Notes under the pieces: model-generated
Told to the model about the DNA's origin: nothing
Databases searched by the model: none
Seen by the model: the letters and a program-made list of their open reading frames with translations, nothing else
In this document: positions 22,060 to 54,387 of the stretch, piece after piece
How positions within the stretch are numbered: position 1 is the first letter of the stretch
Layout of the letters: every line of letters begins with the position of its first letter
Assembly: GCA_963754315.1 (NCBI GenBank)
Contig: CAVWFS010000019.1
Coordinates: 849,640-913,639 of the forward strand
DNA: 64,000 nucleotides
Direction: 5' to 3'
Origin: an uncultured Candidatus Rokubacteria bacterium
GTDB lineage: Bacteria; Methylomirabilota; Methylomirabilia; Rokubacteriales; CSP1-6
Program-made: the position numbers and the translations under genes

Positions 22060-22187
22060 CCACTGCCTGGCGACTGTTACCGGTCACCGTGCCATCGCCG
22101 TTAGCCTCAGCGGTCGCGGAGCAGCCGCATCGTCGACGTGCGGAGCATGCTGGGTGGCAACCGTCGTCGCATCGTGACCGTCTAAGC

Positions 22188-23042: not shown

Positions 23043-24134
23043 ACATCGTCACCGTGGTGGGCGCCCGCCCGAACTTCGTGAAGATCGCCCCGATCATGGT
23101 CGAGTTGGGCCGCTGTCCGGAGCTATCTTCGATGTCTGATTCACACCGGTCAGCACTACGACGGGCCTATGTCCGAGCAGTTCTTCGCCGATCTCGACTA
23201 TCCGGCCTCCCGACATCAACCTCGAGGTGGGCTCCGGCTCACACGCCGCTCAGATCGCCGAGGTCATGCGGGGCTCGAACCCGTGCTGGAGCGTCTGCGC
23301 CCTGATATGGTGCTGGTGGTCGGAGACGTGAACTCGACATTCGCCGCGGCCATCATCGCGGTCAAGATGAGCATTCCCGTTGCCCACGTCGAAGCCGGTC
23401 TCCGAAGCTTCGATCGCACGCATGCCGGAGGAGATCAACAGGATCCTGACCGATGCTGTCGCGGACTGCTCTTCGCCACCGAGGAGACCGCGCAGACGCA
23501 ACCTGGCCGCGGAGGGCGTCGCCCCAGAGCAGCATCCATTTCGTCGGCAACGTCATGATCGATACGCTCTTGCCGCTTCAAGACCAAGGCGTCGGCCTCA
23601 CGAATTCTCGAGGAGCTCGGCCTCGCCCACCGCGGATTCGTGGTGTTGACTCTACATCGTCCGAGCAACGTGGACAGTTCGGAGGCGCTGCAGCGCCTGC
23701 TCGGTGCCCTCGCCTGCATCGGCTCCGATGTGCCCATTGTCTTTCCGGTTCATCCAAGGACGTGGCCGCGGCTGAAACGAGCACAGTCGACGACGGCCAT
23801 CGCCCGTGGCCTCAGGTTGATCGATCCACTGTCCTATCTCGACTTCATCAAGCTCATGAGCAGCGCTGTCTGCGTGCTGACCGACTCCGGCGGCATCCAG
23901 GAGGAAACCACGGCTCTCGGCATCCCCTGCCTGACCCTTCGCACCACCACGGAGCGACCGGTGACGACCACGTGCGGTACCAATCGAGTCGTGGGGCTCG
24001 ACCCCGAGAGGATCGCGCGGGCATGGGATGAGGTCCGCGACGGACAATGGCCGCGCGGAAACATCCCGGAACTGTGGGACGGACGGACTGCCGAGCGAAT
24101 TGTGCGCATTCTACGCGGGCGAGAGAGGAACTGA
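23039..24134 (+). pseudogene. wecB: UDP-N-acetylglucosamine 2-epimerase (non-hydrolysing) gene, heavily frameshifted (>=5 frame changes in 1.1 kb)
   Basis: Conserved WecB blocks appear in order but across track ORFs in different frames (23039 frame, 23169..23558, 23380..23649, 23453..24031, 23640..24134). The blocks are 'VNIVTVVGARPNFVKIAPIMVEL', 'LIHTGQHYDGPMSEQFFADL', 'PDINLEVGSGSHAAQIAEVM', 'LEPVLERLRPDMVLVVGDVNSTFAAAIIAVKMSIPVAHVEAGLRSFDRT', 'MPEEINRILTDAVAD', 'IHFVGNVMIDTLL', 'VLTLHRPSNVDS...VFPVHPRTWPRL...VLTDSGGIQEETTALGIPCLTLRTTTERP'. Confidence 0.7.
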
Positions 24135-24143
24135 GAGCATCCG

Positions 24144-25166
24144 ATGGAAATCGTCGAACTTCGGGGGGAGACGCTGGAGTGGGATACTTTCGTGAGAACC
24201 TCCCCCGCTGGCAGTCCGTTTCACCTGGTGCGATGGCGACGCGCGGTCGAGGACGCCTTCGGGCATCGCGCGCATTACCTGATGGCCCGCGACGGTGGCC
24301 GTCTTGAGGGCATTCTTCCCCTCTTCGAGGTCACCGGGCTGCTGGGCGGTCGGGCCTTAATCTCTATCCCGTACGCTGTCTACGGCGGGCTATGCGCCAA
24401 CTCGCCGGCCGCGGGCCGAGAGCTTCTGGAGGCCGCCACCGCCCTCGCCAGGGAGCGCAAAGCCGCCTACATCGAACTGCGCCAGCGGCAGGACCTCGGT
24501 CTCGACCTTCCCACCAAAGCTCTCTACGTCACCTTCGTTCGTCAGATTTCGGACAGCGAGGAGGCCAACTTCCAGATCATTCCTCGCAAGCAGCGGCGAA
24601 TGGTTCGTCAAGGGGCCAAGCACGGGCTGCGCGTGGAAATCAGCCCGGATCACTTTGACGCCTTCTATGACATCTACGCGCGTAGCCTGCACAACCTTGG
24701 CTCACCCGTGTTCCCCCGCGCGCTGCTGCGCGGTGTTCTCGCCCACTTCGATAAGGACTGCGACCTCCTTACCGTCTGGCATGGAAATCGCATGGTTGCG
24801 GGTGTCATGAGCCTCTACTACGAGGACGCAGTGATGCCCTACTACGGGGGCGCGAGGCAGGAGGCGTTCACATACGCCGTCAACGACTTCATGTATTGGG
24901 AGCTGATGTGCCATGCCGCCAGGCGGGGCTGCCGTCTCTTCGACTTCGGCCGAAGCCGCGAGGGGACGGGCCCCTACCACTTCAAGCGACACTGGGGCTT
25001 CGAGCCAGCTCCTCTTCCCTACCAATACGTCATGCTGCGCGAGGGTGCCTTGCCCAACCTCAGCCCGTCTAATCCCAGGTTCCAGCTCGCCACTCGTGTG
25101 TGGAAACGGTTACCCCTCTCGGTCACCAAGGCCGTGGGCCCCCTCCTCGCCCGCCACCTACCATAA
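24144..25166 (+). CDS. FemAB-family protein, PEP-CTERM system-associated (GNAT-fold aminoacyl/peptidyl transferase-like)
   Basis: 340 aa. N-terminus 'MEIVELRGETLEWDTFV...SPFHLVRWRRAVEDAFGHRAHYL' and overall FemAB-like length/organisation as found in exosortase loci. Confidence 0.7.
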   Translation: MEIVELRGETLEWDTFVRTSPAGSPFHLVRWRRAVEDAFGHRAHYLMARDGGRLEGILPLFEVTGLLGGRALISIPYAVYGGLCANSPAAGRELLEAATALARERKAAYIELRQRQDLGLDLPTKALYVTFVRQISDSEEANFQIIPRKQRRMVRQGAKHGLRVEISPDHFDAFYDIYARSLHNLGSPVFPRALLRGVLAHFDKDCDLLTVWHGNRMVAGVMSLYYEDAVMPYYGGARQEAFTYAVNDFMYWELMCHAARRGCRLFDFGRSREGTGPYHFKRHWGFEPAPLPYQYVMLREGALPNLSPSNPRFQLATRVWKRLPLSVTKAVGPLLARHLP

Positions 25167-25252: not shown

Positions 25253-26359
25253 ATGAAGGTTCGATTCATCACCTCGCTACGCGAGTTCGACGCCCTGGCG
25301 CCGATCTGGCAAGAGATCACGCGGGCCAGCGGGCAGACATCGCCCTTCGTGAGCCACGACTGGTTTGCGTGCTGCTGGAGGGCGGCCGGACCCAACCGCC
25401 ACCGAGAAGTCTGGCTTCTCGAGGATGCTGCGGGCCCCGTCGCGCTAATTCCGCTGGTCAAGCTGAGGAGTCGTACACGCGGTTTAAGCGTGCGAACGAT
25501 CCGTCTCCTCGATTCTCCCGATACGCCCTTCGTGGACTTCCCGGTCGCCCGAGGGATCGACGAGGTTATGTCGGTGTTTCTCGACTCGCTTCGACAGCGG
25601 CGGGACTGGGACGTCTTTTCGATCAGTAAGCTGCCCATCCATTCCATGCTTTATAAGGTTCTGGAGGCGACCCTACCCGGGCAATTTCCATGGCGGATTG
25701 CCGGCAGAGAGCAGTCCCCCCACCTGGCGATCTCCGGCACGTGGGACGATTTCTTACGGCAGAAGAGTCCGCGTTTCCGAAAGACGTTCCGCAACGTCGA
25801 GAACCGGATGGATCGCAGCGGCAAGGTCGCGATCGAAGAGCATCGCGAGGTCGATCCTGATGGGCCGGCCTTCGCCGATGCGCTGGAGGTCTCGCATCAG
25901 AGCTGGAAAGGGCCGAGCGGGGTGGCCATGGCGACGATGGAGGGTATGCCGCGCTTCTTCCGCGAACTCACTCGGCGGGCCAGCGCCAACGGTTGGCTCC
26001 ATCTCTGGATGCTTCGGCTCGACGGGCGTCCCATCGCCACCGAGTATCAGATCGGCGCTGGAGGCAGCCTCCACGCCCTCCGGGCCGATTTCGACGCCGC
26101 CTTCGCCGACTTATCGCCGGGGGCATTCCTCAATGGCTGCATCGTGAAGACACTCTTTCAGCGACGGACCGTCCACGAATACGATATGGGCCCGGGCACC
26201 AACGAGTACAAACTGCGGTGGGCAAGCGGGACCCACGAAGCGGTTGGCATGGAGATCAACGCACCAACTCCGTATGGGCGCCTATTGCACAAGGTTGAAA
26301 CGTGCCTGGTTCCCGCTGCTCGACGGTGGCGCGATCGCCTGGGTCAGGCATGCGGCTGA
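25253..26359 (+). CDS. GNAT-family (Acetyltransf_6/CelD/BioF2-like) acyltransferase
   Basis: 368 aa starting 'MKVRFITSLREFDALAPIWQEI...SPFVSHDWFACCW' (CelD/BioF2-like N-terminus). Start at M52 of track ORF. Confidence 0.6.
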   Translation: MKVRFITSLREFDALAPIWQEITRASGQTSPFVSHDWFACCWRAAGPNRHREVWLLEDAAGPVALIPLVKLRSRTRGLSVRTIRLLDSPDTPFVDFPVARGIDEVMSVFLDSLRQRRDWDVFSISKLPIHSMLYKVLEATLPGQFPWRIAGREQSPHLAISGTWDDFLRQKSPRFRKTFRNVENRMDRSGKVAIEEHREVDPDGPAFADALEVSHQSWKGPSGVAMATMEGMPRFFRELTRRASANGWLHLWMLRLDGRPIATEYQIGAGGSLHALRADFDAAFADLSPGAFLNGCIVKTLFQRRTVHEYDMGPGTNEYKLRWASGTHEAVGMEINAPTPYGRLLHKVETCLVPAARRWRDRLGQACG

Positions 26360-28209
26360 TTGGTGGACTCGTCAACTGGGACAACCAGCGGCCGGTAGGC
26401 CAGTCGAGGCTACGGGCGATGGCGACGGCTGGCGCGCCCGGGGCAGAATCAACTGCCCGGGTCGGCCTCAACGGATCCATGGGACTCTTCAGTGTCCTTG
26501 GCCACTCGAGTCTGGATGACGCGTCCGATATACAGTGGGTCGCTGATCTCGACCTGACCAACCTCGACGAGCTGAGAGCCCTGGCCCAGCCGCCGACCGG
26601 GAACGGCGGCTGGCTAGCCGCCCTTTGGCAGCGCGAAGGGCCGCGCTTCGTCCGCCGCCTCCGTGGAGCCTTCGCACTCGCCCTATGGGATGAGCGTCGG
26701 CGGACCTTGCTTTTGGCCGTCGACCATCTCGGCATACGGCGGCTTCACTACGCGACCGACCATCGCCGGACGGCCTTTGCATCCCGTCCAACCGCTGTAC
26801 TGCGAGAGGCGGATATCGACCGCAGCGTGGATCTGACGGCTATCTACAACTACTTAAACTTCGGGTATATCCCCGCCCCCGGCAGCGCCTTCCGGCACGC
26901 GCATCGTCTCCCGCCGGGCCATCTCCTCCTCGTCCACGACAGCCACGTCACCCTCGAACAGTACTGGGATGTGGCCTTCGAGAAGCGTTCTCTCCACGAG
27001 GGTGAGACGGCCGGGCAGCTGTACCACTTGACAGAGCACGCGGTTCGCACGGCGGTCGGCGGGACCGACTCGCAGGAGCTCGGCGCCTTTCTGAGCGGCG
27101 GAACCGACAGCAGCACGGTGGTGGGTCTCATGACCGCCATCTCCGGTGCCAAGGTCAAGACCTTTTCGATTGGTTTCGGAGAGGAACGTTATAATGAATT
27201 GTCCTATGCCGAGCTGACGGCGAATCATTTCGGGACCGCCCACCATACCCATATCGTCACTCCGCAGGAGGCGTTCAAGCTCCTGCCGGTGCTGGTCGAA
27301 GCGTATGATGAACCGTTCGGGAACAGCTCGGCCATCGGCACCCTCGTGTGTGCCGAACTTGCGCGCGACTTCGGGATACGGATGTTGCTCGCGGGCGACG
27401 GTGGCGACGAGATCTTCGGTGGGAACGAGCGCTACCGCACAGATCGGATCTTCGCGCGCTATGCTCATATGCCGTCGATCTTCCGGCGCCAGATATTCGA
27501 GCCGATTCTCTTCCGCCTACCGGCCGGCGACCACGGGCTGGTGAGGCGTGCTCAACGTTACGTTCGGCGGGCCAGCATGCCGAACCCGCGGCGCTTCTAC
27601 TCGTATGAATTCTTCTTCGCGCAACAGGTCAACGATCTGCTCGATCCGGCCTTCTGCGCTGCTCTCGATGTCGAGGCACCCTGGAATATCCTCGAGGGAC
27701 ACTACGCGCGCACGGGCACCAGCGAGGAGCTGAATCGGCTGCTCTACCTGGACCTCAAGCTCACCATCGGTGACAACGACCTCCTGAAGGTCACGCGCAC
27801 ATGCGAGTTGGCCTCGGTAGGTGTCCGCTTCCCCCTCCTCGACCTTGCCCTCGTCGATTTCACCGGAACGTGGCCGGCACGCTTCAAGGTTCGCGGCCTG
27901 GAGAAGCGTTACCTCTTCAAAAAGACCTTCGCCAAGCTGCTCCCCGCGGCCACCCTGGCTAAGAAAAAGCACGGCTTCGGTGTGCCGACGAGCGCGTGGC
28001 TCAAGGGCGAGCCTGAGTTCATCGCGCTCGCCCGTGACACCCTCCTCAGCTCCCGATGCCGACAACGCGGCTATTTTCGTCAGGGGGCCCTTGAGCATCT
28101 CTTCCAATGTCAGCAGGCTGACGTCACGCCGTACTACGGAAGCATCCTGTGGACGGTATTGATGCTCGAACTCTGGCATCAGCGGCACGTCGACCCGGTG
28201 GCGGCATGA
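26350..28209 (+). CDS. asparagine synthetase-family amidotransferase #1 (exosortase-system associated type); N-terminal Cys nucleophile absent
   Basis: AsnB-like synthetase domain 'LSGGTDSSTVVGLM' (PP-loop SGGxDS). N-terminus reads 'MRLIGG...' rather than 'MCGI...', so the class-II glutaminase Cys2 is missing. Start at M17 of track ORF, overlapping upstream stop. Confidence 0.8.
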   Translation: MRLIGGLVNWDNQRPVGQSRLRAMATAGAPGAESTARVGLNGSMGLFSVLGHSSLDDASDIQWVADLDLTNLDELRALAQPPTGNGGWLAALWQREGPRFVRRLRGAFALALWDERRRTLLLAVDHLGIRRLHYATDHRRTAFASRPTAVLREADIDRSVDLTAIYNYLNFGYIPAPGSAFRHAHRLPPGHLLLVHDSHVTLEQYWDVAFEKRSLHEGETAGQLYHLTEHAVRTAVGGTDSQELGAFLSGGTDSSTVVGLMTAISGAKVKTFSIGFGEERYNELSYAELTANHFGTAHHTHIVTPQEAFKLLPVLVEAYDEPFGNSSAIGTLVCAELARDFGIRMLLAGDGGDEIFGGNERYRTDRIFARYAHMPSIFRRQIFEPILFRLPAGDHGLVRRAQRYVRRASMPNPRRFYSYEFFFAQQVNDLLDPAFCAALDVEAPWNILEGHYARTGTSEELNRLLYLDLKLTIGDNDLLKVTRTCELASVGVRFPLLDLALVDFTGTWPARFKVRGLEKRYLFKKTFAKLLPAATLAKKKHGFGVPTSAWLKGEPEFIALARDTLLSSRCRQRGYFRQGALEHLFQCQQADVTPYYGSILWTVLMLELWHQRHVDPVAA

Positions 28210-29231
28210 GCTCGGCCCAGCCCTCGCCGCTCACACGCTGGGTGGCGGCCGGTCTGTACCATAGCCGATTGATGTCTCCCCTGTCCCGGGCGGTCGGATT
28301 GGCTGCCCGTCCCCCCGCCTTCCAGATTCTCACCTTTCACCGGGTTAACGATGAGCATGATCCCTTTTTCGAGTCGGTCCCCACCCGGGTGTTCGAGCAA
28401 CGCATGGCCTATCTGGCCGAGACGTGCCACGTGCTGACCGTCGAACAACTGGTCAAGCGCGCACGGGCCGGGAACCTTCCCTCCAATGCGGTCGCGATCA
28501 CGTTCGACGATGGCTATCGGGACAATCTGACGCACGGGGCGCCGATTCTCGTACGGCTGGGCCTCCCTGCCACCATTTTCCTGGCCACAGGGTTCATTGG
28601 GACCACCGCCGTCGCCTGGTCCGACCGGGTGGCGATGGCCTTCAAGCTGACCACCCGCGAGTCGCTGATGACGCCCTGGCGAAAGATCGTCAGCCTTACC
28701 AGTCAGACCGACCGGCTGCGCGCCCTCGCGCAGACGATCGCGTTCCTCAAGCAACAGCCCGATGACGAGCTTCGCGTCACCGTCGATCGTTTGCTCGAGA
28801 CCCTGGGGGTGACCGATCAGAAGCCGCTCAAGGATCTCATGCTCACCTGGGACGACGTGAACGCGCTGGTGGGATTGGGCTTCTCAATCGGGGCCCACAC
28901 CGTCAATCACCCGATTCTCTCGCGTGTCAGCGCTCAGCGGGCCCGCACCGAAATCATGGGCTCCCGTCAGATCATCGAATCAGCGTGCGGCCAAGCCCCC
29001 ACGTCATTTGCCTACCCCAACGGCACCGCCGACGATTATACGCAGACGGTCACGCATCTGGTACGCGAGGCCGGATTCACGTCAGCCGTCACCACCCGAT
29101 TCGGACTCAACACGGCCAGCACCTCGCCATTCGAGCTCAGGCGAGGCGGGCCGTGGGAGGAAGACCTCCCGACCTTTGCCCTGAAGCTCGCAGGATATCG
29201 GCTGCTCGGGGCTCGCGCGAACGTCTCATGA
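28206..29231 (+). CDS. polysaccharide deacetylase (NodB-homology domain; PgaB/IcaB-like)
   Basis: 'ILTFHRVNDE...AVAITFDDGYRDNLTHGAPILVRLGLPATIFLATGFIG' NodB motif (TFDDG). Start at M20 of track ORF, ATGA overlap with upstream stop. Confidence 0.8.
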   Translation: MSSAQPSPLTRWVAAGLYHSRLMSPLSRAVGLAARPPAFQILTFHRVNDEHDPFFESVPTRVFEQRMAYLAETCHVLTVEQLVKRARAGNLPSNAVAITFDDGYRDNLTHGAPILVRLGLPATIFLATGFIGTTAVAWSDRVAMAFKLTTRESLMTPWRKIVSLTSQTDRLRALAQTIAFLKQQPDDELRVTVDRLLETLGVTDQKPLKDLMLTWDDVNALVGLGFSIGAHTVNHPILSRVSAQRARTEIMGSRQIIESACGQAPTSFAYPNGTADDYTQTVTHLVREAGFTSAVTTRFGLNTASTSPFELRRGGPWEEDLPTFALKLAGYRLLGARANVS

Positions 29232-30526
29232 AGCGCGTCCTCATGGTCGCCTATCACTTTCCGCCTGAAGCGAGTAGTAGCGGAGTGCTCAGGACCCTCA
29301 AGTTCGGAAAGTATCTGCCCAGCTTCGGGTGGACACCTCATATTCTCACTCTCTGCGAATCTGCCTATCGAGTGCGTGACGAGCAACTCCTCGCCCAGAT
29401 CCCACCGACGGCGGTGATCCATCGCGTGCGCGGCTTCGACGCTACCCGCCACCTCGCCATCCAAGGTCGCTACCCGGCCGCCCTCACCGTGCCCGATCGA
29501 TTCGTGAGCTGGCTGCCCTTCGGCGCCGCCAAGGGACTCGGCGTGATTCGGTCGATGGGCATCCACGCCCTCTATTCGACGAGCCCCTTGCCCACCGCGC
29601 ACCTCATCGCGGCCGTGCTTAGAACGCGGACGGGGATCCCCTGGATTGCCGACTTCAGGGATCCTTGGATCGAGGAAGGGCTCTATCCCCGACCCGGCTC
29701 TCTGCGCAACTGGGTCGAAAGGCGGCTGGAACGCATCGTGATAAGCCAGGCCGACCGGATTACCGTGACGACCCCGCTCTTTCGGGAGGAACTCGCGCGG
29801 CGCTATCCTCAGCTGCCGCCTGAGAAGATCCGGGTCGTCTTCAATGGGTACGACGAGGAAGACTTCGAGGGGATCAAAGCCACCCCTCGCACGGATCGTT
29901 TCGAGATCCTGCACGCGGGGCTGGTCACGCCGGACTATCGGGACCCGCGACCGCTCCTGGACGCGGTGGCGAGCCTAATCGGCGGCGGCCATCTGCCGGC
30001 GGACGACGTGAGGGTCGCCTTTCTCGGAGGCGGCCCCTACCTCGACGCGCCTGCCTTCCGCCAAGTCCTCCAGCAGCGGGGACTAGACCGGGTCGTTGAC
30101 GTGACTGGTCGCGTGTCCTATGAGGAGTCTCTCGTGCGCATGGGCCAGGCTTCGGTCCTCCTTCTGCTGCAGGCCTCCGATGACACTCGATCGTTGATCC
30201 CCGCCAAAGCGTTCGAGTATCTCCGGGCTGGGAGGCCACTGCTGGCCCTCACCTCCGACGGAATGACGGCCGAATTACTGCGCACCACCGGGCGGGGCAT
30301 CGTTGTCCCGCCCGGGAACAGCGAGTCGATCGCGCGCGTCCTACTCGATTTGTACGCGCAGCACCGTGATACCGACCGGCACGACACGGTCGCCGACCCG
30401 GGCAAGGTCGACATCTCGCGCTACGAACGGCGATTTCTGACTGGCGAGCTCGCCCACTTGCTCGATGAAGTCATCGGCGCCGAAGATGTGGCCGCCACGC
30501 CATCCGGCCGCGTCCAGATGGCCTGA
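29228..30526 (+). CDS. glycosyltransferase family 4 (GT-B, exosortase-locus associated)
   Basis: 'MKRVLMVAYHFPPEASSSGV...' N-terminus, C-terminal GT4 donor-binding region ('EGLYPRPG... FEYLRAGRPLLALTSDGMTAEL'). Start at M82 of track ORF overlapping upstream stop. Confidence 0.75.
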   Translation: MKRVLMVAYHFPPEASSSGVLRTLKFGKYLPSFGWTPHILTLCESAYRVRDEQLLAQIPPTAVIHRVRGFDATRHLAIQGRYPAALTVPDRFVSWLPFGAAKGLGVIRSMGIHALYSTSPLPTAHLIAAVLRTRTGIPWIADFRDPWIEEGLYPRPGSLRNWVERRLERIVISQADRITVTTPLFREELARRYPQLPPEKIRVVFNGYDEEDFEGIKATPRTDRFEILHAGLVTPDYRDPRPLLDAVASLIGGGHLPADDVRVAFLGGGPYLDAPAFRQVLQQRGLDRVVDVTGRVSYEESLVRMGQASVLLLLQASDDTRSLIPAKAFEYLRAGRPLLALTSDGMTAELLRTTGRGIVVPPGNSESIARVLLDLYAQHRDTDRHDTVADPGKVDISRYERRFLTGELAHLLDEVIGAEDVAATPSGRVQMA

Positions 30527-31851
30527 TGCGCGACATCGTCCTGACTGCCTTCGTGTTCGCCATGCTGCCGGTCTGCCTGGTCCGTCCTTGGATCGGCATC
30601 TTGATGTGGTCGTGGCTCGGCTACATGAACCCTCACCGGTTGACGTGGGGGTTTGCCTTCACCATGCCGTTTGCCCAGCTGATTGCTGTCACCACGCTGA
30701 TTGGCTTCGTATTCACGAAGGCGCGCGCACCGCTCCCTCGTGTACGTGAGATCTATCTCCTTCTTGGTCTGTGGGCGGTGTTCACGGTATCGACCCAGTT
30801 CGCCCTTTATCCTGAGAGCGCCTGGGATCAGCTGACCAAGGTGTCGAAGATCTTCTTCATGACTCTGATCACCATATCCCTCTGCCAGGAATCCCGCAAA
30901 GTCCACGCCCTCGTCTGGGTCATCGCGATGTCTCTGGGCTTCTTCGGCCTCAAGGGAGGCATCTGGGCGGTGCTCACCGGCGCCGAGAACCAGGTCCTGG
31001 GTCCCGCCGGCTCCTTCATCGAAGGCAATACCGAGATCGGCCTGGCGTTGGTCATGAATTTGCCCCTCCTCCTCTACGTTCGGCGCGAGGAGAAGCGCGG
31101 CTGGCTGCGCCTCCTGCTCATAATCATGTTCGGTTTCTCCACGATCGCTATTGTCGGCACCTATTCACGGGGCGCGCTGCTGGGACTGCTGGTTGTCCTG
31201 GCGGTGCTCGTTCTGAAGAGCCGGGCGAGGGTCCTGGCGGTCGTCTTGCTCCTCGTCGGCATCCTCCTTGTGACCCCGATGATCCCCGAGAAGTGGTTCG
31301 CGAGGATGGACACCATCAACACGTATGAGCAGGACGGATCGGCCATGGCCCGGCTGACGGTCTGGTACGCCGCCTGGCAACTCGGTCTCGAGCACCCAAT
31401 GCTAGGAGGGGGCTTCAAGACGTTTGACAAGGCCGTCATCAACAAGTACGTGCCGGAGTGGAACCTGGACACCGACGCGCACAACATCTTCTTCCAGATT
31501 CTCGGCGAACATGGGTTTACTGGTCTCGCACTCTATCTAGCCCTCACGATCTCAACGCTGCTCAGCCTGCGTCGTCTGGAACGCCGTACCCGTCATGAAC
31601 CAACTCTGAGCCGGATTCACAACCTCAGCCAGCTCGTACAGGTCAGTCTGGTCGGTTACATGGTGAGCGGGTTTTTCCTCGGTCTCTGCTATTTCGACCT
31701 CTTCTATCACCTTGTCGCCATCACCATCATCCTTAAGCAGCTGGCGTTGGCCGGTGAACGGGTGCCGACGGCGCTAGCCACCGAGGCACCTCCCACGTCG
31801 CTCGTGCGGCGCCCTAGCCCTTGGGGCCGGCCCGCGCTGGGGAGCGGTTGA
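30526..31851 (+). CDS. O-antigen ligase/polymerase-like membrane protein (Wzy_C domain; putative O-glycosylation ligase, exosortase-system associated)
   Basis: ~10 TM helices. Wzy_C signature 'YSRGALLGLLVVLAVL...DAHNIFFQILGEHGFTGLALYLAL'. Confidence 0.8.
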   Translation: MRDIVLTAFVFAMLPVCLVRPWIGILMWSWLGYMNPHRLTWGFAFTMPFAQLIAVTTLIGFVFTKARAPLPRVREIYLLLGLWAVFTVSTQFALYPESAWDQLTKVSKIFFMTLITISLCQESRKVHALVWVIAMSLGFFGLKGGIWAVLTGAENQVLGPAGSFIEGNTEIGLALVMNLPLLLYVRREEKRGWLRLLLIIMFGFSTIAIVGTYSRGALLGLLVVLAVLVLKSRARVLAVVLLLVGILLVTPMIPEKWFARMDTINTYEQDGSAMARLTVWYAAWQLGLEHPMLGGGFKTFDKAVINKYVPEWNLDTDAHNIFFQILGEHGFTGLALYLALTISTLLSLRRLERRTRHEPTLSRIHNLSQLVQVSLVGYMVSGFFLGLCYFDLFYHLVAITIILKQLALAGERVPTALATEAPPTSLVRRPSPWGRPALGSG

Positions 31852-31854
31852 TAT

Positions 31855-33723
31855 ATGTGCGGGATCGCTGGCGTTCTTAACCTAAACGGTCGGCCCGCGG
31901 ACGCTCGGCTGCTTCGGGCGATGACGGACTCGCTCACCCATCGAGGCCCCGACGGGGCCGGAGCCTGGGTCAGCGGTCCGGTGGCCCTGGGCCATCGGCG
32001 GCTCGCCATCATCGACCTCGCCACCGGCTCCCAGCCAATGGGGAACGAAGAGGGGACGGTCTGGCTCACCTACAATGGCGAGCTCTACAACTTTCGCGAA
32101 CTGCGAGTCGAGCTCGAAGCACGCGGGTTTACTTTTCGGACGAACTCGGACACCGAGGTGCTTCTGAGGGCGTACGAAGCGTTCGGCGTCGAATGTCTAC
32201 TGCGCCTGCGCGGGATGTTCGCCTTTGCTATCTGGGATGACCGCCGCCGCCGGCTCTTTCTGGCGCGCGACCGAGTAGGCATCAAGCCTCTCGTGTACGC
32301 CGCCGACGGTCAGCGCGTGCTCTTCGCCTCCGAAATTAAGGGAATCCTTCAGGACCCGACGGTCTCGCGTGAGTTGGACTGGGTAGCGGTGCGCGACTAC
32401 CTTGCTCATTCCTATATCCCAAGCCCGCGCACAATTTTTCGTGGCATCCGCAAGCTTCCCCCCGGCTCCTATCTCGTCCTCGACGCGGGCATGGCCGAGC
32501 CTGAGGTTCGCCGCTACTGGGACCTTCAGTTCAGGCCAGATGAGACGCGGTCAGACGCGGAGTGGTTGGAAGACTTGCGCTGGCATCTTGGCGACGCAGT
32601 CCGCAGTCACCTGGTCAGCGACGTCCCGGTCGGCGCCTTCCTGAGCGGCGGCCTCGACTCGAGCACGGTGGTGGCCTTTATGGCGGGGGCGGCGGAAGCG
32701 CCGCGTACCTTTTCTATCGGCTTCGACGAGACCGAGTTCGACGAGCTTCCGTTTGCCCGCACGGTGGCCCGGAGGTACCGGACCGACCATTGCGAATTTG
32801 TCGTCAAACCAGACGCACTCGATGTGCTGCCACGCCTAAGCAGGCAGTTCGACGAGCCGTTCGGTGACGCTTCTGCCGTCCCCACCTACTACGTCTCGAA
32901 GATCGCGCGCGAGCACGTCACCGTGGTCCTCTCGGGTGACGGAGGAGACGAGAACTTTGCCGGCTACTCGCGCTACCAGCGGGCCCAAACCCTCCACAGG
33001 CGGCTCGATCATCTGCCCGGTAGCGTTGTACGAGCGCTCCTCCGTCTGGCCGCCCGCTGGTGGCGGCCCGGCGCCCGCGGGCAAGGCTATCTCGAGCTGC
33101 TCGGCGCGGATCCGGTGGAGCGCTACTTCCGGATGGTCACCTTCCACACGAGCGCGAGCCTGGCTCGCCTCCTCACCGCCGAGGCGCGCGCGCAGGTCGC
33201 GCCAAAAGTCGATCCTGCTCTTTTTCGGCGCCTGATCGATGTGGACAACGTATCCGATTACCTTTCAACCCTCCAGTACCTGGACATCCGAACTTATCTC
33301 CCCGAGGACATTCTGACCAAGGTCGACCGCACTAGCATGCTCGTCTCCCTCGAGTCGCGCGTTCCCCTGCTCGATCACATCCTCATGGAGTTTTTGGCAA
33401 CGATGCCGACGCGGCTGAAATACGAAGCCGGCCACGGCAAAGTCATCCTGAAGCGGGCCATGGCCAATGACCTGCCCGACGAGGTGCTCCGGCGTCGGAA
33501 GATGGGGTTCGGCGTCCCTCTGGGCACCTGGTTCCGCGGCACACTGGCTGACTACTCCCGCGACCTTCTGACAGGATCCCGGGCGAGCCAACGCGGCATC
33601 TTCGACCCGGTCGCGGTAGCCGCCCTGCTCGACGCGCATGCCACGGGGCATGACCGGTCGAGTCAGATTTGGTCCCTTCTGTGCTTCGAAGAATGGGCAC
33701 GGCAATGGCTCGACCGATCCTGA
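31855..33723 (+). CDS. asparagine synthetase-family amidotransferase #2 (glutamine-hydrolysing, exosortase-system associated)
   Basis: 'MCGIAGVLNL' Ntn-glutaminase start; 'LSGGLDSSTVVAFM' PP-loop; full-length AsnB organisation. Confidence 0.85.
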   Translation: MCGIAGVLNLNGRPADARLLRAMTDSLTHRGPDGAGAWVSGPVALGHRRLAIIDLATGSQPMGNEEGTVWLTYNGELYNFRELRVELEARGFTFRTNSDTEVLLRAYEAFGVECLLRLRGMFAFAIWDDRRRRLFLARDRVGIKPLVYAADGQRVLFASEIKGILQDPTVSRELDWVAVRDYLAHSYIPSPRTIFRGIRKLPPGSYLVLDAGMAEPEVRRYWDLQFRPDETRSDAEWLEDLRWHLGDAVRSHLVSDVPVGAFLSGGLDSSTVVAFMAGAAEAPRTFSIGFDETEFDELPFARTVARRYRTDHCEFVVKPDALDVLPRLSRQFDEPFGDASAVPTYYVSKIAREHVTVVLSGDGGDENFAGYSRYQRAQTLHRRLDHLPGSVVRALLRLAARWWRPGARGQGYLELLGADPVERYFRMVTFHTSASLARLLTAEARAQVAPKVDPALFRRLIDVDNVSDYLSTLQYLDIRTYLPEDILTKVDRTSMLVSLESRVPLLDHILMEFLATMPTRLKYEAGHGKVILKRAMANDLPDEVLRRRKMGFGVPLGTWFRGTLADYSRDLLTGSRASQRGIFDPVAVAALLDAHATGHDRSSQIWSLLCFEEWARQWLDRS

Positions 33724-33742
33724 TTCTTTGCGAGCGAAGATA

Positions 33743-34861
33743 ATGGTCCACATCGTTCATGTCGTGCACTCGCTGGAAGTGGGAGGCACCGAGATGGGCG
33801 TCGTCAATCTCATCTCTGCCCTCCGGGACGACTTTCGCCATACCGTGGTGGCCATGACTGGAGCAGGCCCCCTCGCCGCGCGACTCCCGCTCGAGGTCGC
33901 CCTGTACCAGCTCGGCAAGCAGCCGGGAAAGGACGTCAAGACGTTCACACGGCTGATCATGCTACTCCGAAAGCTAGCGCCCGAGGTCGTACACACGCGG
34001 AGCTGGGCGGCGATGGATGCCGTGGTGGCGGCCCGGCTGAGCCGGGTGCCGGTTGTCGTGCACGGAGAGCACGGTCGGGAGGCGATGGACCCTCACGGGT
34101 TGAACCGGCGCCGGAACCGTGTGCGCCGATTGTTGACCCCATTCATCGACCGCTTCGTAACTGTCTCCTGCGATCTCGGGCGCTGGCTCGACATGACCGT
34201 CGGCGTCCCGCCCCGGAAGATCCTGACGATTCACAATGGGGTCGACACCTGCCGATTTTCCGGTGACCACCGGGAGGCCGGCCGCCGCGCTCTGAAACTC
34301 GCGCCGGAGACGGTCGCCGTCGGCACCGTTGGCCGGCTCGATCCCGTCAAGGGTCAACATGGGCTGCTGGAAGGCTTTGCCGGGGTCGATGCGGAGCTGG
34401 CGCCGACTGCCCTGGTCGTGGTCGGAGACGGCCCCTGCCGAAGCGCCCTCGCGGGTCGCGCACGTCAACGGGATCTTTTGGGACGCGTCCATCTGCTCGG
34501 CGAGCGGGCCGACATCCCAATACTCCTCGGGGGACTCGACGTCTACGTGCTGCCCTCCATCGCGGAGGGAATTTCCAACACCATCCTGGAAGCTATGGCC
34601 ACCGGCCTACCGGTGATTGCCACACGCACTGGCGGCAACCCCGAATTGGTCGAGGACGGCGCGACCGGGATGCTGGTTCCGGTGGGAGACTCCGCGATGC
34701 TTACTGCCGCACTGACGACATATCTGAGGCGTCCTGACCTTCGCGCCGCCCACGGTACGGCCGGCCGCCAGCGGGCGGTGGAGAGCTTTGCGCTCGAACG
34801 GATGACTCGGCGATATCGCGACCTCTATTGCGAGCTGATCCGGGAGAAAGTTGCCGCCTAG
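33743..34861 (+). CDS. glycosyltransferase family 4 (sugar transferase, PEP-CTERM/EpsH1-system associated type)
   Basis: 'MVHIVHVVHSLEVGGTEMGVVNLISAL' N-terminus; C-terminal 'EGISNTILEAMATGLPVIATRTGGNPELVEDGATGMLVP' GT4 motif. Start at M36 of track ORF. Confidence 0.8.
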   Translation: MVHIVHVVHSLEVGGTEMGVVNLISALRDDFRHTVVAMTGAGPLAARLPLEVALYQLGKQPGKDVKTFTRLIMLLRKLAPEVVHTRSWAAMDAVVAARLSRVPVVVHGEHGREAMDPHGLNRRRNRVRRLLTPFIDRFVTVSCDLGRWLDMTVGVPPRKILTIHNGVDTCRFSGDHREAGRRALKLAPETVAVGTVGRLDPVKGQHGLLEGFAGVDAELAPTALVVVGDGPCRSALAGRARQRDLLGRVHLLGERADIPILLGGLDVYVLPSIAEGISNTILEAMATGLPVIATRTGGNPELVEDGATGMLVPVGDSAMLTAALTTYLRRPDLRAAHGTAGRQRAVESFALERMTRRYRDLYCELIREKVAA

Positions 34862-34863
34862 CC

Positions 34864-36767
34864 ATGTGTGGAATTGCCGGTATCGTCCACGCCGACCCCA
34901 AGTATCCGATCGATCTCGACTTGCTCCGTCGCATGACCATGACTCTTGAACATCGGGGCCCTGATGCCCAGAGTGTTCGGGGGTGGCGCGGCGCCGCCTT
35001 CGGCCACCGCCGCCTCAGCATCATCGATCTGGCCACGGGGGATCAGCCCGTTTTCAACGAAGACCGGACGAAGGCGGTGGTGTTAAACGGCGAGATCTAT
35101 AACTATCACGACCTGCGCGCTGAGCTCGAAGCGCGGGGCCACCGCTTCGCGACGCAGAGCGATACGGAGTCTATCGTCCACGCCTACGAGGAATACGGGG
35201 ATCGCTGCGTGGAACACCTCCGCGGGATGTTCGCATTCGCGGTCTGGGATGACCGCGAGCGGCGCCTGCTGTTAGCTCGGGACCGGGTCGGCAAGAAACC
35301 CCTCTACTATACCCACGACGGAGAGCGCCTCGCCTTCGCCTCCGAACTGAAGGCGCTGCTTGCAGACCCTGCTTGCAAGCGGGAGATAGACCTCCAAACC
35401 CTGAACGACTACTTTTCGCTGGGAGCGGTGCAGGCGCCGGCGACGATCTTTCGGGGTGTGCGCCAGCTTCCTCCCGCGCACCTGCTCGTGTGGAAACAGG
35501 GGGTCATACGGATCCACGAGTACTGGGATGTTCCCCGCGACCCGATCGAGCCGAAAACGGAAGCCCAGGCTCTCGAGCAGTTTGCCGAGATATTCGAAGA
35601 GGCGGTGCGACTACGACTCATGAGCGACGTGCCGCTCGGCGCATTCTTGAGCGGAGGGGTCGACTCGAGCGCAGTGGTCGCCATGATGGCGCGACTTTCG
35701 CGGCGGGCGGTGGTGACGACGAGTGTCGGCTTCGCCGAGCGGGCCTTTAACGAGATCGAGCACGCTCGTGCGGTCGCTCGTACGATCAGGAGCGATCACT
35801 CCGAAGTGCTCGTGCGCTCGCAGGCCGCTGACATCCTACCGAGGCTGGTCTGGCATCTCGACGAGCCGTTCGCGGACTCCTCTGCCCTGCCCACGTACTA
35901 CGTCGCCAAGGCCGCCCGGGAACGGGTGACGGTCGCGCTCTCCGGCGACGGCGGTGACGAGGGGTTTGCCGGTTATCAGCGCCGCTATGGCCTTAACGCC
36001 TGGGAGACTCGCTGCCGACGTTGGCTCCCGGGTTGGGTCCGCACCGGCATTCTAGCTCCGGCCGGCACGATATATCCAAAAGCCGACTGGCTTCCCCGGC
36101 CGCTGCGAGCCCGATACTTCCTCCAGAACCTCGGGACGACGTTCGAGCGGGCCTACTTCGCCGATCTCTCCCTGTTCCGACGAGAAGAGAAGGCTGCCCT
36201 CCTCTCCGCGGAGCTCAGAAGGGAACTCAACGGGCACGACTCCTTCACGGCCTTCGCGCGCCACTTCGCGCGCGTGGCCGGCCTGGATCCCCTACGCCAG
36301 CTGCTCTATGTCGATCTCAAGACCTGGCTCGCCAACGACATCCTGGTCAAAGTTGATCGGATGAGCATGGCGAACTCGCTCGAGGTTCGCTCCCCGTTCC
36401 TGGACCACAAGGTGATCGAGTTTGCCGCCACCTTGCCGTCCAACCTCAAGTATCGCGGGCGCACTTCTAAGTACCTTCTGAAACGCCACCTGGAGGGGCA
36501 GCTCCCGCGTTCCGTGATTCATCGTGCGAAACATGGATTCGAGATGCCAGTGGCCGCCTGGCTCCGCGGCGAGCTGCGGGAGATGGGTCAGGAGCTGTTA
36601 CTGTCGCCGCGCGCACTCAATCGTGGCTACGTGGTGGCGTCTGGCGTACGCCGTCTCTGGGACCCCACCAGCGAGGTCTCCAGGATCACTCGGCACGGCT
36701 CTGGGCCCTGCTTGTCCTCGAGCTGTGGCACCGGACGTTCGTGGATCGGGTGCCACCGGGCATATGA
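34864..36767 (+). CDS. asparagine synthetase-family amidotransferase #3; C-terminal 30 aa reached only after a -1 frameshift in a C-run (~36672)
   Basis: 'MCGIAGIVHA' start (M13 of track ORF 34828..37110); 'LSGGVDSSAVVAMM' PP-loop. Expected C-terminus '...DHSARLWALLVLELWHRTFVDRVPPGI*' (compare paralogs ending '...ILWTVLMLELWHQRHV' / '...IWSLLCFEEWARQW') lies in the -1 frame after 'gaccccacc'. Its TGA forms an ATGA overlap with the next gene's start. The track's 760-aa read-through is an artefact of the shift. Confidence 0.7.
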
Positions 36768-37501
36768 AGACGTTCGACGCGCAGTGGCAGGCTCGCTTCG
36801 AGCGCTTCGCGGCTGGCTCCTCCGAGGACCATGCGGTCTCGGGCTGGTCGCGCGAAGGACTTCAGCGGCGTGTCCGGCTGTTCCAGGGGCTGCTGGGGGA
36901 GCTGGCGCTGCCACATCCGGCCAGTGTTCTCGACCTTGGCTGTGGAGCGGGAACGTACGTTCGCACTCTGAGCGGACTCGGTCACATGGCGGTCGGGATG
37001 GACTACGCGTTCCAGAGCCTGCGGCGCGGGGTCGCCGCGGACCCAGGAGGCGAGGGACGCTATCTTGCCGCCGACGGGGTGGCCCTGCCATTTCGGTCAA
37101 ACTCCTTTGATCTGATCACTTGCATTGGCGTGCTTCAGGCGGTGAGTCGTCCCGAGATGCTTGTCGCGCAAATTGCGCGCGTGCTGCGCCCGGGGGGCAT
37201 TCTGATCATCGAGGTCTTGAATCCGCTGGAGCTGCCGGCACTCGGTCAACGAGTACTGGACGCCCTCAACTCGCGGCCGCCTCGACTCCGCCGGCACCGT
37301 TCTTCACAGATGCGACAATGGTTAGCCGGCTGGGGCATCCCGGTTGTGCGCCAGGTAGGTGTCTACCTTCCGCCGCGCAGTCACCCAGGGCTAGGCCGCG
37401 TCTTTGATTATCCACGTCTCACACGCCTTCTTGAGCTCGTTCCGTTTGGGTCTTCGATGGTCGCGCACGCCTTTTGGCTGTTAGGAAGAAAGGTGACATG
37501 A
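36764..37501 (+). CDS. class I SAM-dependent methyltransferase (Methyltransf_11-like)
   Basis: Motif I 'VLDLGCGAGTY'; post-I 'GMDYA'; motif II/III 'LRPGGILIIEV'. Start at M81 of track ORF 36524..37501. Confidence 0.7.
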   Translation: MKTFDAQWQARFERFAAGSSEDHAVSGWSREGLQRRVRLFQGLLGELALPHPASVLDLGCGAGTYVRTLSGLGHMAVGMDYAFQSLRRGVAADPGGEGRYLAADGVALPFRSNSFDLITCIGVLQAVSRPEMLVAQIARVLRPGGILIIEVLNPLELPALGQRVLDALNSRPPRLRRHRSSQMRQWLAGWGIPVVRQVGVYLPPRSHPGLGRVFDYPRLTRLLELVPFGSSMVAHAFWLLGRKVT

Positions 37502-37523: not shown

Positions 37524-38930
37524 TTGAAGGGGCCGATCTCTTTTGAAGGCTTGACCGTCCTGCTGGCGGCCGTGAGCGGCCTCGCCGTGGGGGGGGTAGC
37601 TCTAAGGCGACATCGATACGGGGGGCTTCCCCGGAGTTTCGGCGCGGGCATGGTTGCTTTTGTCAGCGTCGTCGTTACCAATATTGCCCTGCTTTCCAAG
37701 AACCTTCGCGGGCACATCAGACGCTCTACCGGAAGGTACTTCTCCCGGAGCAAATACGATTATCGGCAACAGTGGACCAACTTCTCGACCCGCCTGCGCT
37801 CGCTGGTAACCATGGAGGAACTCGCTCCGGCGCTTCTATCGGTGGTGACCGATGCGGTGGGAACGGCACAGGGAGCCCTATACCTCGCCGGCGAGCACGA
37901 CGATGTGTATCATCTGGCTGCCTCTCGCGAATTCGACCGACTGCCAGCAGACCTAGGAAAGGGCTCGTTCCTGTTCTCGCGACCGGCCGGGCCGCGGACT
38001 CCATTCCCCATCGAGGCGAATGGCCCAGACTCATGGCTCGACACGGCACCGTTGCCCAGCTCTGAAGTCATCGCCGTCCCCTTGTACTGGAGGAATACGC
38101 TGGTGGGCTGTCTAGTGCTGGGTCCGCCGCGGACCGGTGTCGGGTACGACAAAGAGGATTTTGACTTCTTGGCTACCGTGGGCGAATCGGCCGCTGGAAT
38201 TGTCGTCACCGTGCTCATGGCGGAGCGCTCAGCCCGAGCGCGGGAATTCGAAGCGCTCCATCAGCTGACCTCATGCGTGATTCACGACTTCAAGAACGCA
38301 GTGACCGCGCTCTCCATGCTCAGCGCAAATGCCCGCGATCATTTCGATGATCCCGAATTTCAGCGCGATGCGCTCAGGACCCTGGCGCGGACCGTGGACC
38401 AGATGAGGGGATTGCTCGCCAAACTGTCGCCCTCCCCCGAAGTCAGCCGCATCCGTTTCGAGGCTGTCGATCTCGCCAAGCTCCTGCTGGAAACGGCCAG
38501 TACCGTTCTCGATGGCAAGCCGGTAACGGTGGAGGAGCGCATTCGGCCGATCCCTCTAATTCTCGCCGACCGGGTGGCACTCGGCCGCGTACTCCAGAAC
38601 TTCCTCCTCAATGCTCTCGAGGCGATCGACCACGCCGGGCGGATCACCCTCAGCACCGAGCCTCAGCAGGGTTTGGTCTCCTGCGCGGTGGCGGACGACG
38701 GGTGCGGAATGTCGGCTGAGTTCATCCGCCGGTCCCTCTTCGTGCCTTTCCGTTCTACGAAGAAGGGGGGCTGGGGCATTGGTTTGTACCATGCAAGAGA
38801 GATCGTGGCCGCTCACGGTGGCCGCATCGAGGTGGACAGCCACGAAGGGAGGGGCACAACCTTTCGGCTGCTCTTCCAACCGGCTGCCCCTTCTCGCACC
38901 GCCGATCGCAACAGGACCACCCACCCATGA
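37524..38930 (+). CDS. prsK: sensor histidine kinase, PrsK-like but with a short (2-TM) N-terminal region
   Basis: Two N-terminal TM helices, GAF-like middle region, H-box 'VIHDFKNAVTALSML', HATPase_c 'GGWGIGLYHAREIVAAHGGRIEV...GTTFRL'. Sits immediately upstream of the exosortase and a sigma-54 response regulator. Confidence 0.75.
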   Translation: MKGPISFEGLTVLLAAVSGLAVGGVALRRHRYGGLPRSFGAGMVAFVSVVVTNIALLSKNLRGHIRRSTGRYFSRSKYDYRQQWTNFSTRLRSLVTMEELAPALLSVVTDAVGTAQGALYLAGEHDDVYHLAASREFDRLPADLGKGSFLFSRPAGPRTPFPIEANGPDSWLDTAPLPSSEVIAVPLYWRNTLVGCLVLGPPRTGVGYDKEDFDFLATVGESAAGIVVTVLMAERSARAREFEALHQLTSCVIHDFKNAVTALSMLSANARDHFDDPEFQRDALRTLARTVDQMRGLLAKLSPSPEVSRIRFEAVDLAKLLLETASTVLDGKPVTVEERIRPIPLILADRVALGRVLQNFLLNALEAIDHAGRITLSTEPQQGLVSCAVADDGCGMSAEFIRRSLFVPFRSTKKGGWGIGLYHAREIVAAHGGRIEVDSHEGRGTTFRLLFQPAAPSRTADRNRTTHP

Positions 38931-54076: not shown

Positions 54077-54387
54077 CTGGGAGGCATCCTCCGTGCGGGG
54101 CGGCGTCTCCGCTCTGCCGGTTACCCTACTCCGGCGGCCGCGGATGGGAAACGGCCCGCATCGACTCAAAATTTTGGTTACCTAGGGCGACCGCCTAGAT
54201 CAGAAGTCGCGGGTACCAAGCTATCAGAGGAGGGTACGGTGACGCGAGCGAGTGTGCGCGAGTATGCCGCCAGACAGCGGGAGGGGTCTTGCCGCCGGCC
54301 TGAACGGCTCGCAGCCAGCACACGCACTGGGCTCATGGTACCGGCGGCCAATCAACCGCGCCGTCCGACCCACCCCCTGTTGACCGA

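Follow-up and report, generated by a model that had tools for sequence, protein, structure and literature searches.

A Cys-less lineage of AsnB-like proteins in exosortase-type exopolysaccharide loci of Rokubacteria and other bacteria

Several relatives of asparagine synthetase B (AsnB) have dispensed with its cysteine nucleophile: beta-lactam synthetase and CarA keep the AsnB fold with a vestigial, Cys-less N-terminal domain, activate a carboxylate by adenylation and take their amine from the substrate, and the lasso-peptide isopeptide cyclase, another Cys-less AsnB homolog, makes its amide from a carboxylate and a substrate amine. Such substrate-amine homologs are already known, as are clusters with more than one AsnB gene: three 'asparagine synthase (wbpS)' genes occur in a Rubrivivax/Thauera/Rhodoferax cluster (PMC3684757), two AsnB genes in Zoogloea/Aquincola clusters (PMC9012009) and three in the Bordetella wbm locus (PMC2615507). 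WbpS-type AsnB homologs of glycan loci are held to turn uronic acids into uronamides (PMC6025236, PMC3684757), and in Porphyromonas gingivalis the FemAB-like VimA, the deacetylase VimE and the AsnB homolog PGN_1234 have been put forward as the enzymes that make 2-N-seryl-3-N-acetylglucuronamide, the sugar that links cargo of the type IX secretion system; the same FemAB-like/deacetylase/AsnB trio has been noted beside exosortase genes as well (PMC7468200). Here we analyse a 64,000-nucleotide stretch of DNA from an uncultured Candidatus Rokubacteria bacterium (contig CAVWFS010000019.1; hereafter the window), which carries an exosortase-type exopolysaccharide (EPS) locus with four AsnB-family paralogs, Asn1 to Asn4, and we concentrate on Asn1, which lacks the glutaminase nucleophile.

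The window resembles the WbpS and PGN_1234 systems (Pseudomonas aeruginosa O6, Helicobacter pullorum, P. gingivalis) in placing an AsnB-family protein in a glycan locus, and it shares with P. gingivalis, where PGN_1234 works beside a FemAB-like transferase and a deacetylase, the whole trio; WbpS and PGN_1234 are, however, described as glutamine-dependent, unlike Asn1, a comparison made by description and not by sequence. The mutated Rubrivivax gene RGS1_10407 has 37% identity to WbpS in the published account, which suggests that it may be of the Cys-containing (Cys+) type. With the TIGR03108 family of XrtA/PEP-CTERM amidotransferases the window has its exosortase-type EPS context in common, and Asn2 and Asn3 share the full architecture of that family including the nucleophile Cys1, whereas Asn1 is without every glutaminase residue. 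Among environmental and wastewater floc-forming bacteria, exosortase/PEP-CTERM systems are widespread, and they depend on glycan chemistry and on a molecule to which exosortase attaches its substrates; the interest of the locus lies in the Cys-less lineage that Asn1 represents, not in the number of AsnB copies or in a single lost cysteine.

Glutaminase and synthetase sites of the four paralogs

The four AsnB-family genes listed by the original prediction, which was made from the DNA letters alone, are real, with PF00733 E-values of 3e-75 (Asn1), 6e-103 (Asn2), 2e-98 (Asn3) and 7.5e-36 (the Asn4 fragment). Its reading of the N-termini also holds: Asn2 (31855–33723) and Asn3 (ATG at 34864) begin MCGIAG, with a cysteine directly after the initiator Met, whereas Asn1 begins MRLIGG. 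Alignment with E. coli AsnB (reference sequence from the MG1655 record) bears out the predicted absence of the nucleophile from Asn1 and extends the loss to the rest of the site, since Arg stands at Cys1, R49 is deleted, N74-G75-E76 reads D-L-D and D98 is Asn, while Asn2 and Asn3 retain Cys1, R49, N74-G75-E76 and D98. With the whole glutamine site gone from the alignment, Asn1 is predicted to be incapable of hydrolysing glutamine.

A misplaced start does not account for this pattern. The Asn1 ATG lies at 26350 and opens an uninterrupted 619-codon open reading frame (ORF); upstream, the frame is closed by a TGA at 26296–26298, 17 codons before the ATG, and the sole earlier start, a GTG at 26302, would add VPGSRCSTVARSPGSG, in which there is no MCG-type motif. 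An upstream alternative start that restored an MC N-terminus, which the original prediction had named as a way in which it might be wrong, is ruled out by this in-frame TGA and motif-free extension. Its other doubt, that Asn1 might be truncated at the N-terminus, is countered by the homologs, whose initiator Met immediately precedes the Cys1-equivalent column, and by an AlphaFold model that places the first beta-strand at residues 4–9 with a predicted local distance difference test score (pLDDT) of 96; because of both, we take Asn1 to be neither truncated nor mis-started. The public copy of the protein (P0001, 596 aa) is annotated from Met24 and, judged by homologs and model, is 23 residues too short, the true start being at 26350 (window positions 26350–26418).

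The synthetase half of Asn1, by contrast with its glutaminase half, is intact, with the PP-loop SGGTDSS, D350-G-G-D353-E354 and K540, the counterpart of E. coli K449; the position of E. coli E348 is occupied by Asp in Asn1, Asn2 and Asn3 alike. The SGGxDS motif and the residues equivalent to D351, E352 and K449 are invariant in these three paralogs, in 109 close homologs of Asn1 and in the 77 members of its clade described below, pointing to strong purifying selection on the adenylating site. The original prediction's suggestion that Asn1 might act non-catalytically is disfavoured by this invariance of all tested ATP- and adenylate-site residues.

TIGR03108 is the best NCBIfam match of all four paralogs, none of which reaches its cutoff of 816.9 bits: Asn2 scores 703.9, Asn3 722.2, the Asn4 fragment 107.6 (over profile positions 490–623) and Asn1 337.7, matching only from profile position 107. 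Against TIGR01536 (cutoff 267.1 bits) Asn2 and Asn3 pass at 498.6 and 513.1 bits and Asn1 stays below at 243.3, so that Asn1 falls under every curated NCBIfam cutoff. Its AlphaFold model, built on 66 sequences, nevertheless has the two-domain AsnB fold (mean pLDDT 92.7; predicted template modelling score, pTM, 0.92), indicating a real folded two-domain protein.

Searched with Foldseek over both domains, the model came closest to TsnB9 (PDB 7ylz; template modelling score, TM, 0.76); beta-lactam synthetase, E. coli AsnB, human ASNS and CarA ranked lower. TsnB9 is the closest solved protein by sequence too (phmmer 9.9e-20) and shares the long architecture of about 620 aa; identity is only ~17–18%, it is named as a hydroxyamidotransferase of a secondary-metabolite pathway, and the HMMER alignments of the pair begin at TsnB9 residue 96–114, beyond the N-terminal nucleophile region. 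Beta-lactam synthetase and CarA match Asn1 in both domains (TM 0.55–0.59, query-normalised), and Asn1, to judge by its residues and model, likewise combines an AsnB fold and a Cys-less vestigial N-domain with what is probably an active adenylating C-domain. Those enzymes, however, belong to antibiotic clusters and make intramolecular lactams, whereas the context of Asn1 is clearly no beta-lactam cluster; sequence similarity to CarA is low (E = 5e-4), and the HMMER alignment stops at residue ~356, too short to align the Tyr-Glu dyad reliably. E. coli AsnB (1ct9) has the two-domain fold, PP-loop, K449 and D351/E352 in common with Asn1 but is only 26% identical to it, and Asn1 carries an extra helical insertion of ~65 residues (alignment columns 405–500).

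The other paralogs look conventional. Asn2 and Asn3 are 47% identical to each other and 33% to Asn1; the Asn4 fragment is closest to Asn2 (43%), and its N-terminus, hence its Cys status, lies outside the window. From their sequences Asn2 and Asn3, and probably Asn4, are best read as ordinary glutamine-dependent uronamide-type amidotransferases of the WbpS/TIGR03108 kind. The original prediction needs correction at the end of Asn3, placed at 37110; it had overlooked both a frameshift there and the minus-strand orientation of Asn4, which runs off the window edge. A 1-nucleotide frameshift in the C4 run at 36663–36666, ~35 codons before the stop, carries the Asn3 ORF on to 37110 (a false 760 codons that overlap the methyltransferase gene). 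Adding one C yields a canonical C-terminus with its stop at 36765–36767, and the repaired protein aligns to its orthologs over residues 1–631. The frameshift may reflect an error in the assembly or a genuine truncating mutation; a second frameshift within the same 64 kb, in a CapK-like ligase gene, hints at assembly indel errors.

A Cys-less clade and its conserved gene order

More than 100 full-length relatives of Asn1, at 53–64% identity, emerged from a search of 5.8 billion proteins, the nearest of them from Rokubacteria/Methylomirabilota metagenome-assembled genomes. (L-numbers below denote loci from a scan of one genome per species, 80 loci in all, and P-numbers homologous proteins.) The Cys1 column of the 109 close homologs holds Arg in 30, a gap in 16, Ser, Cys and Ala in 10 each, Gly and Pro in 7 each and Thr in 6; R49 is absent throughout, N74 is replaced by Asp in 98/109 and E76 by Asp in 100/109. 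The ~10 Rokubacteria-type homologs with a Cys in that column (for example P0021, P0023, P0025, P0027, P0028, P0034, P0039 and P0059) have it preceded by as many as ~14 leader residues and are without the other catalytic residues (R49, N74, E76); in sequence terms this Cys may be left over from the ancestral nucleophile.

Loci L002–L020 hold close Asn1 orthologs, most of them labelled Rokubacteria/Methylomirabilota, while the proteins of L021–L081 are 34–44% identical to Asn1 and come from Desulfobacterales, Geobacter, Syntrophobacteraceae, Beta- and Gammaproteobacteria, Acidobacteria and one alphaproteobacterium, among them the isolates Desulfospira joergensenii DSM 10085, Marichromatium gracile DSM 203, Chromatium weissei DSM 5161 and Mizugakiibacter sediminis. 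Across the 80 loci not one ORF best matched by Asn1 starts with MCG. Those best matched by Asn2 or Asn3 do so with two exceptions, a frameshifted copy and one in L053 with its MCG 275 residues away from the PP-loop, slightly beyond the range searched.

We aligned 77 Cys-less with 29 Cys+ sequences, the latter including Asn2 and Asn3, using MAFFT. Cys1 is present in 28/29 of the Cys+ set (the remaining one has a gap) and R49, N74, G75, E76 and D98 in 29/29; in the Cys-less set the Cys1 column is mixed (Ser 23, Ile 10, Arg 8, Asn 6, His 6, Thr 5) and the other five glutaminase positions are unconserved. Cys occurs in that column once among the 77, in L043, where it does not adjoin the initiator Met. 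We also considered the Cys of a gammaproteobacterial 'M-x-G-I-C-G-W' N-terminus as a nucleophile exposed by propeptide removal and rejected it: the Met directly precedes the Cys1 column, the Cys aligns with the Ala of MCGIAG, and these members are without R49, N74, E76 and D98.

In a neighbour-joining tree of the synthetase region the Cys-less proteins, 79 sequences from Rokubacteria, Desulfobacterota, Beta/Gammaproteobacteria and Acidobacteria, are monophyletic in 93/100 bootstraps, and Asn2 and Asn3 lie in two Rokubacteria subclades of the Cys+ group. Around the adenylate site the clade has its own motif, GDGGDEIFGGNERY, and four invariant residues, N325 (Asp in Cys+ proteins), C334 (Val in Cys+ proteins), N359 (Tyr in Cys+ proteins and E. 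coli, Tyr357) and R520 (Lys in Cys+ proteins and E. coli, Lys429). Asn1 falls inside the clade and carries all of its signature residues (GDGGDEIFGGNERY, N325, C334, R520). D477, at the position of E. coli D384, was entertained as a general base, peculiar to this clade, for a substrate amine and dropped, because the Cys+ clade has a conserved Asp at 476, making the difference a one-residue shift and not a gain.

Mean pairwise identity within Rokubacteria rises from 0.28 over residues 1–65 to 0.55 over residues 66–200 and 0.65 in the synthetase domain, so the first 65 residues of Asn1 appear to evolve fast; a phmmer search with its divergent N-terminal 105 residues against 1.84 billion representatives gave 15 weak matches, mostly fragments. 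Seven clade members from other phyla also score below all NCBIfam cutoffs (270–315 bits against TIGR03108); as these seven and Asn1 fall under every threshold, no curated NCBIfam model captures the clade. Sources often label its members 'asparagine synthase (glutamine-hydrolysing)', a name that is almost certainly misapplied. Taken together, the comparisons suggest that Asn1 is no one-off loss but belongs to an old, unnamed, multi-phylum and apparently functional lineage. In the literature searched we found no earlier description of a Cys-less AsnB lineage in exosortase/EPS loci.

Gene order around Asn1 is likewise conserved. A tblastn survey of window proteins against the 80 loci revealed the order chain-length determinant-Deac1-orf192-FemAB-...-GNAT2-Asn1-Deac2-...-Olig-Asn2-(stp2)-Asn3-methyltransferase in Rokubacteria (L002, L005, L007, L012 and others; gene names as in Table 1, with Olig for the O-antigen-ligase-like gene), exosortase-Deac1-FemAB-glycosyltransferase-Asn1-(Deac2) in Desulfobacterota, and glycosyltransferase-glycosyltransferase-Asn1-glycosyltransferase-Asn3(Cys+)-Deac2 in Betaproteobacteria. 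Among loci of at least 15 kb (n=51), an XrtA-type marker lies within 10 kb on either side in 34/51, FemAB-like genes in 25/51 and Deac2-like genes in 24/51. In the window the GNAT2 stop (TGA, 26357–26359) overlaps the start of Asn1 (ATGCGGCTGA) and the 5' part of Deac2 overlaps its 3' end; this overlapping GNAT2-Asn1-Deac2 arrangement is conserved in Rokubacteria, with such an overlap also between Deac2 and the Asn1 orthologs of L002, L004, L010 and others. The original prediction had called the multiplicity of AsnB genes unusual. Given the recurrence of Asn1...Asn2-stp2-Asn3 in L002, L005, L007 and L012, together with the published multi-AsnB clusters, the number is ordinary for such loci.

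Possible chemistry of Asn1

On balance, though with no great confidence, we favour the reading that Asn1, an AsnB-superfamily protein, is catalytically competent and synthesises an amide independently of glutamine, probably on a uronate-type EPS precursor, with a substrate amine as the favoured nitrogen donor. By analogy with the chemistry of the family, the C-terminal PP-loop domain would bind ATP and adenylate a carboxylate, and the N-terminal nucleophile (Ntn) domain would be kept as a structural module only. The likely substrate would be a uronic-acid sugar, linked to a nucleotide or a lipid and activated at its C-6 carboxylate, that belongs to the EPS or to an exosortase-acceptor glycan. 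A uronate is probable because of the nucleotide-sugar dehydrogenase genes, which occur in 16 related loci besides the window; the window's own is a candidate source of uronic acid and makes plausible the amidated uronates that had been proposed for this locus. In other Rokubacteria (L002, L003, L007–L010, L012, L013, L019 and L020) a nucleotide-sugar dehydrogenase gene lies between the chain-length determinant and Deac1, ~1–4 kb into the locus; in the window no gene occupies that position, and the dehydrogenase is encoded in the minus-strand module instead.

A nitrogen nucleophile would next attack the acyl-AMP, its source being something other than glutamine hydrolysed by the same polypeptide. 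Because the clade has active-site residues of its own and is tightly linked to genes for deacetylases and FemAB-like proteins, a substrate amine is favoured here: either a sugar amine that the deacetylase encoded by the overlapping gene exposes, or the amine of an amino acid that the neighbouring FemAB-like transferase handles. Free ammonia comes a close second, nearly as likely and simpler. A simple hydropathy scan found no signal or transmembrane segments in Deac1, Deac2, FemAB, GNAT2 or Asn1, a result compatible with consecutive cytoplasmic steps by these five predicted proteins. More tentative is the proposal that the Cys-less family joins a substrate amine (an amino acid, or an aminoacylated or de-N-acetylated sugar) to a sugar carboxylate, much as beta-lactam synthetase and lasso cyclases employ a substrate amine, and makes no primary amide; if it does, the product could be a uronate that is amidated with an amino acid or is a lactam or cross-linked, and it might belong to the acceptor that receives PEP-CTERM proteins from exosortase. 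Should exosortase loci resemble the type IX secretion system of P. gingivalis, the distinction between two AsnB lineages, one glutamine-dependent and one glutamine-independent with its own signature, would matter, as it gives concrete candidates for modification of the acceptor or the EPS.

Several points weigh against a substrate amine. The carboxylate substrate, the nucleophile and with them the product are read from context only. E. coli AsnB mutated at Cys1 keeps its ammonia-dependent activity, so plain NH3-dependent amidation needs fewer assumptions. In the N-domain, clade-wide conservation is confined to G6, G106 and D125, all common to the Cys+ paralogs, and no residue of that domain appears to mark positively a binding site for a bulky amine; a DLDLTN motif at the old N74–E76 site is restricted to the Rokubacteria and Desulfobacterota subclades. 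The position of the clade among all AsnB subfamilies is provisional, because the loci in the tree were ascertained by similarity to Asn1 and only 29 Cys+ sequences were included. Asn1 might be an ammonia-dependent amidotransferase that converts uronate to uronamide as Asn2 and Asn3 would, drawing on free NH3/NH4+ and serving a different sugar or stage: a possible but rather doubtful account, which fits the intact synthetase site, the dead glutaminase site and the retained two-domain fold and, as the simplest one, asks for no new binding site, yet leaves unexplained, if not decisively, both the persistence, in several phyla, of a separate clade with invariant N359, N325, C334 and R520 beside Cys+ paralogs and its close association with genes for deacetylases and FemAB-like proteins.

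The retention of the glutaminase domain as a fold, and the joint presence of Cys-less and Cys+ paralogs in Rokubacteria and in Beta/Gammaproteobacterial loci (for example L044, L049, L057, L060–L064, L067, L072, L080), could also be read as signs of a non-catalytic pseudoenzyme or scaffold that pairs with Asn2 or Asn3, for example as a heterodimer. This seems improbable, since clade-wide invariance of the ATP and adenylate residues is unexpected in a non-catalytic partner and six Desulfobacterota loci (L022, L025, L027, L036, L040, L047) have no close Cys+ paralog within 10 kb on either side. Still less probable is a lasso-like macrolactam or isopeptide cyclase acting on a peptide or on PEP-CTERM proteins: lasso cyclases are Cys-less AsnB homologs too, and Asn1 gives a sub-threshold match to their model NF033535, but its 133.3 bits are far below the 525-bit cutoff and are exceeded by Asn2 (289) and Asn3 (271), and the context is one of polysaccharide biosynthesis throughout. 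No lasso-maturation family appeared among the ORFs scanned against Pfam and NCBIfam, a small precursor gene not having been searched for, and a simple regex pattern scan of the window found no PEP-CTERM tail. That Asn1 is a decaying pseudogene or an assembly or annotation artefact, as the two frameshifted genes of the window and the mis-started public copy might hint, is hardly credible for an unbroken 619-codon ORF with so many full-length homologs at 53–64% identity, a confident structural model and conserved synteny.

Locus layout and neighbouring genes

The core of the window, on the plus strand, is an exosortase/PEP-CTERM-type EPS locus according to curated family models (Table 1). As the original prediction had it, FemAB, a second GNAT gene and two deacetylases accompany the exosortase, all recovered by profile matches, and the window also holds PrsK/PrsR-like proteins and members of TIGR03006, TIGR03019, TIGR03097, TIGR03013 and TIGR03087, with a TIGR03027-like protein besides. 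A second module, on the minus strand at 54–64 kb, comprises Asn4, stp1, the nucleotide-sugar dehydrogenase, a membrane-anchored transglutaminase-core protein and further transferases.

Table 1. Annotated features of the EPS locus and of the minus-strand module (window positions)
Feature	Position	Strand	Profile match or remark
Export protein		+	best match TIGR03027, 175.3 bits, just below cutoff 180
Priming glycosyltransferase		+	TIGR03013
Chain-length determinant fused to tyrosine kinase		+	
Deac1, XrtA-system polysaccharide deacetylase	22056–23042	+	TIGR03006, 377.8 bits (cutoff 276.2)
orf192, conserved ORF between Deac1 and FemAB	23453–24031	+	192 codons
FemAB-family XrtA/PEP-CTERM-associated protein	24144–25166	+	TIGR03019, 401.2 bits (cutoff 260.35)
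GNAT2, second FemAB-like/GNAT acyltransferase	25253–26359	+	PF13480, 3.1e-25
Asn1, AsnB paralog	26350–28209	+	619 aa; Cys-less, predicted glutaminase-dead, PP-loop intact
Deac2, second polysaccharide deacetylase, PgaB/IcaB-like	28149–29231	+	PF01522, 3.5e-24; weak PgaB/IcaB matches
GT4 glycosyltransferase	29228–30526	+	PF13579, PF13439, PF13692
Exosortase-A-system-associated O-antigen-ligase-like protein	30526–31851	+	TIGR03097, 464.6 bits (cutoff 188.1)
Asn2, AsnB paralog	31855–33723	+	622 aa; full glutaminase and synthetase sites
stp2-like GT4 glycosyltransferase	33638–34861	+	TIGR03088, 394.2 bits, just below cutoff 409.05
Asn3, AsnB paralog	34864–36767	+	frameshifted near 3' end
S-adenosylmethionine-dependent methyltransferase	36764–37501	+	PF08241, 8.4e-20
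PrsK-like histidine kinase	37524–38930	+	TIGR02916, 285.9 bits (cutoff 300), profile positions 235–677 only
Exosortase, EpsH family	38927–39859	+	PF09721, 7.9e-56; TIGR02602, 133.4 bits (cutoff 105.55)
PrsR-like sigma-54 response regulator	40206–41552	+	TIGR02915, 491.1 bits (cutoff 502.6)
Nucleotide-sugar 6-dehydrogenase	60984–62402	-	TIGR03026, 354.4 bits (cutoff 189.8); Pfam UDPG_MGDP_dh N, central and C domains
stp1 PEP-CTERM/XrtA-system glycosyltransferase	62297–63529	-	TIGR03087, 472.4 bits (cutoff 316.65)
Asn4, AsnB paralog	63526–64000	-	C-terminal ~157 codons; rest beyond window edge

Reading frames in the locus are tightly packed. The likely GNAT2 start is the MKVRF at 25253 in an ORF open from 25100, orthologs aligning from query residue ~46–52; that of the GT4 gene following Deac2, which it overlaps, is MKRVLMVAY at 29228 in an ORF open from 28985. 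The methyltransferase ATG overlaps the restored stop of Asn3 (ATGA), and the GTG start of stp1 overlaps the stop of Asn4 (GTGA). The product of orf192 matches no Pfam or NCBIfam model, and tblastn places its counterpart at the equivalent position in several Rokubacteria loci (L002, L003, L008). The exosortase scores below both subtype cutoffs (XrtA, 154.6 against 208 bits; XrtW, 171 against 425 bits). The PrsK-like kinase is without the usual N-terminal membrane domain, and the methyltransferase gene fills the space upstream.

In the minus-strand module the transglutaminase-core protein (60005–60979), with hydrophobic segments at both ends, adjoins the dehydrogenase and lies near Asn4. Bordetella WbmE, a periplasmic enzyme of the transglutaminase superfamily, deamidates O-antigen uronamides (PMC2615507); the window protein, likened to WbmE by description only, could be an enzyme that balances amide against acid. 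The CapK/PaaK-like AMP-dependent ligase (56670–58095, minus strand) is split into an N-terminal ORF (57421–58095) and a C-terminal ORF (56670–57326), with a frame change near 57330–57420; orthologs in L067, L073 and L069 are contiguous. Between the two modules lie two large minus-strand genes (44606–49285 and 50717–54169), encoding a 1559-aa protein with Kelch, Big_7, fn3 and beta-helix domains and a 1150-aa adenylate/guanylate cyclase-AAA-TPR regulator. At the other end of the window, and unrelated to the EPS locus, positions 492–2114 encode the hopanoid C-3 methylase HpnR (TIGR04367, 859 bits, cutoff 650).

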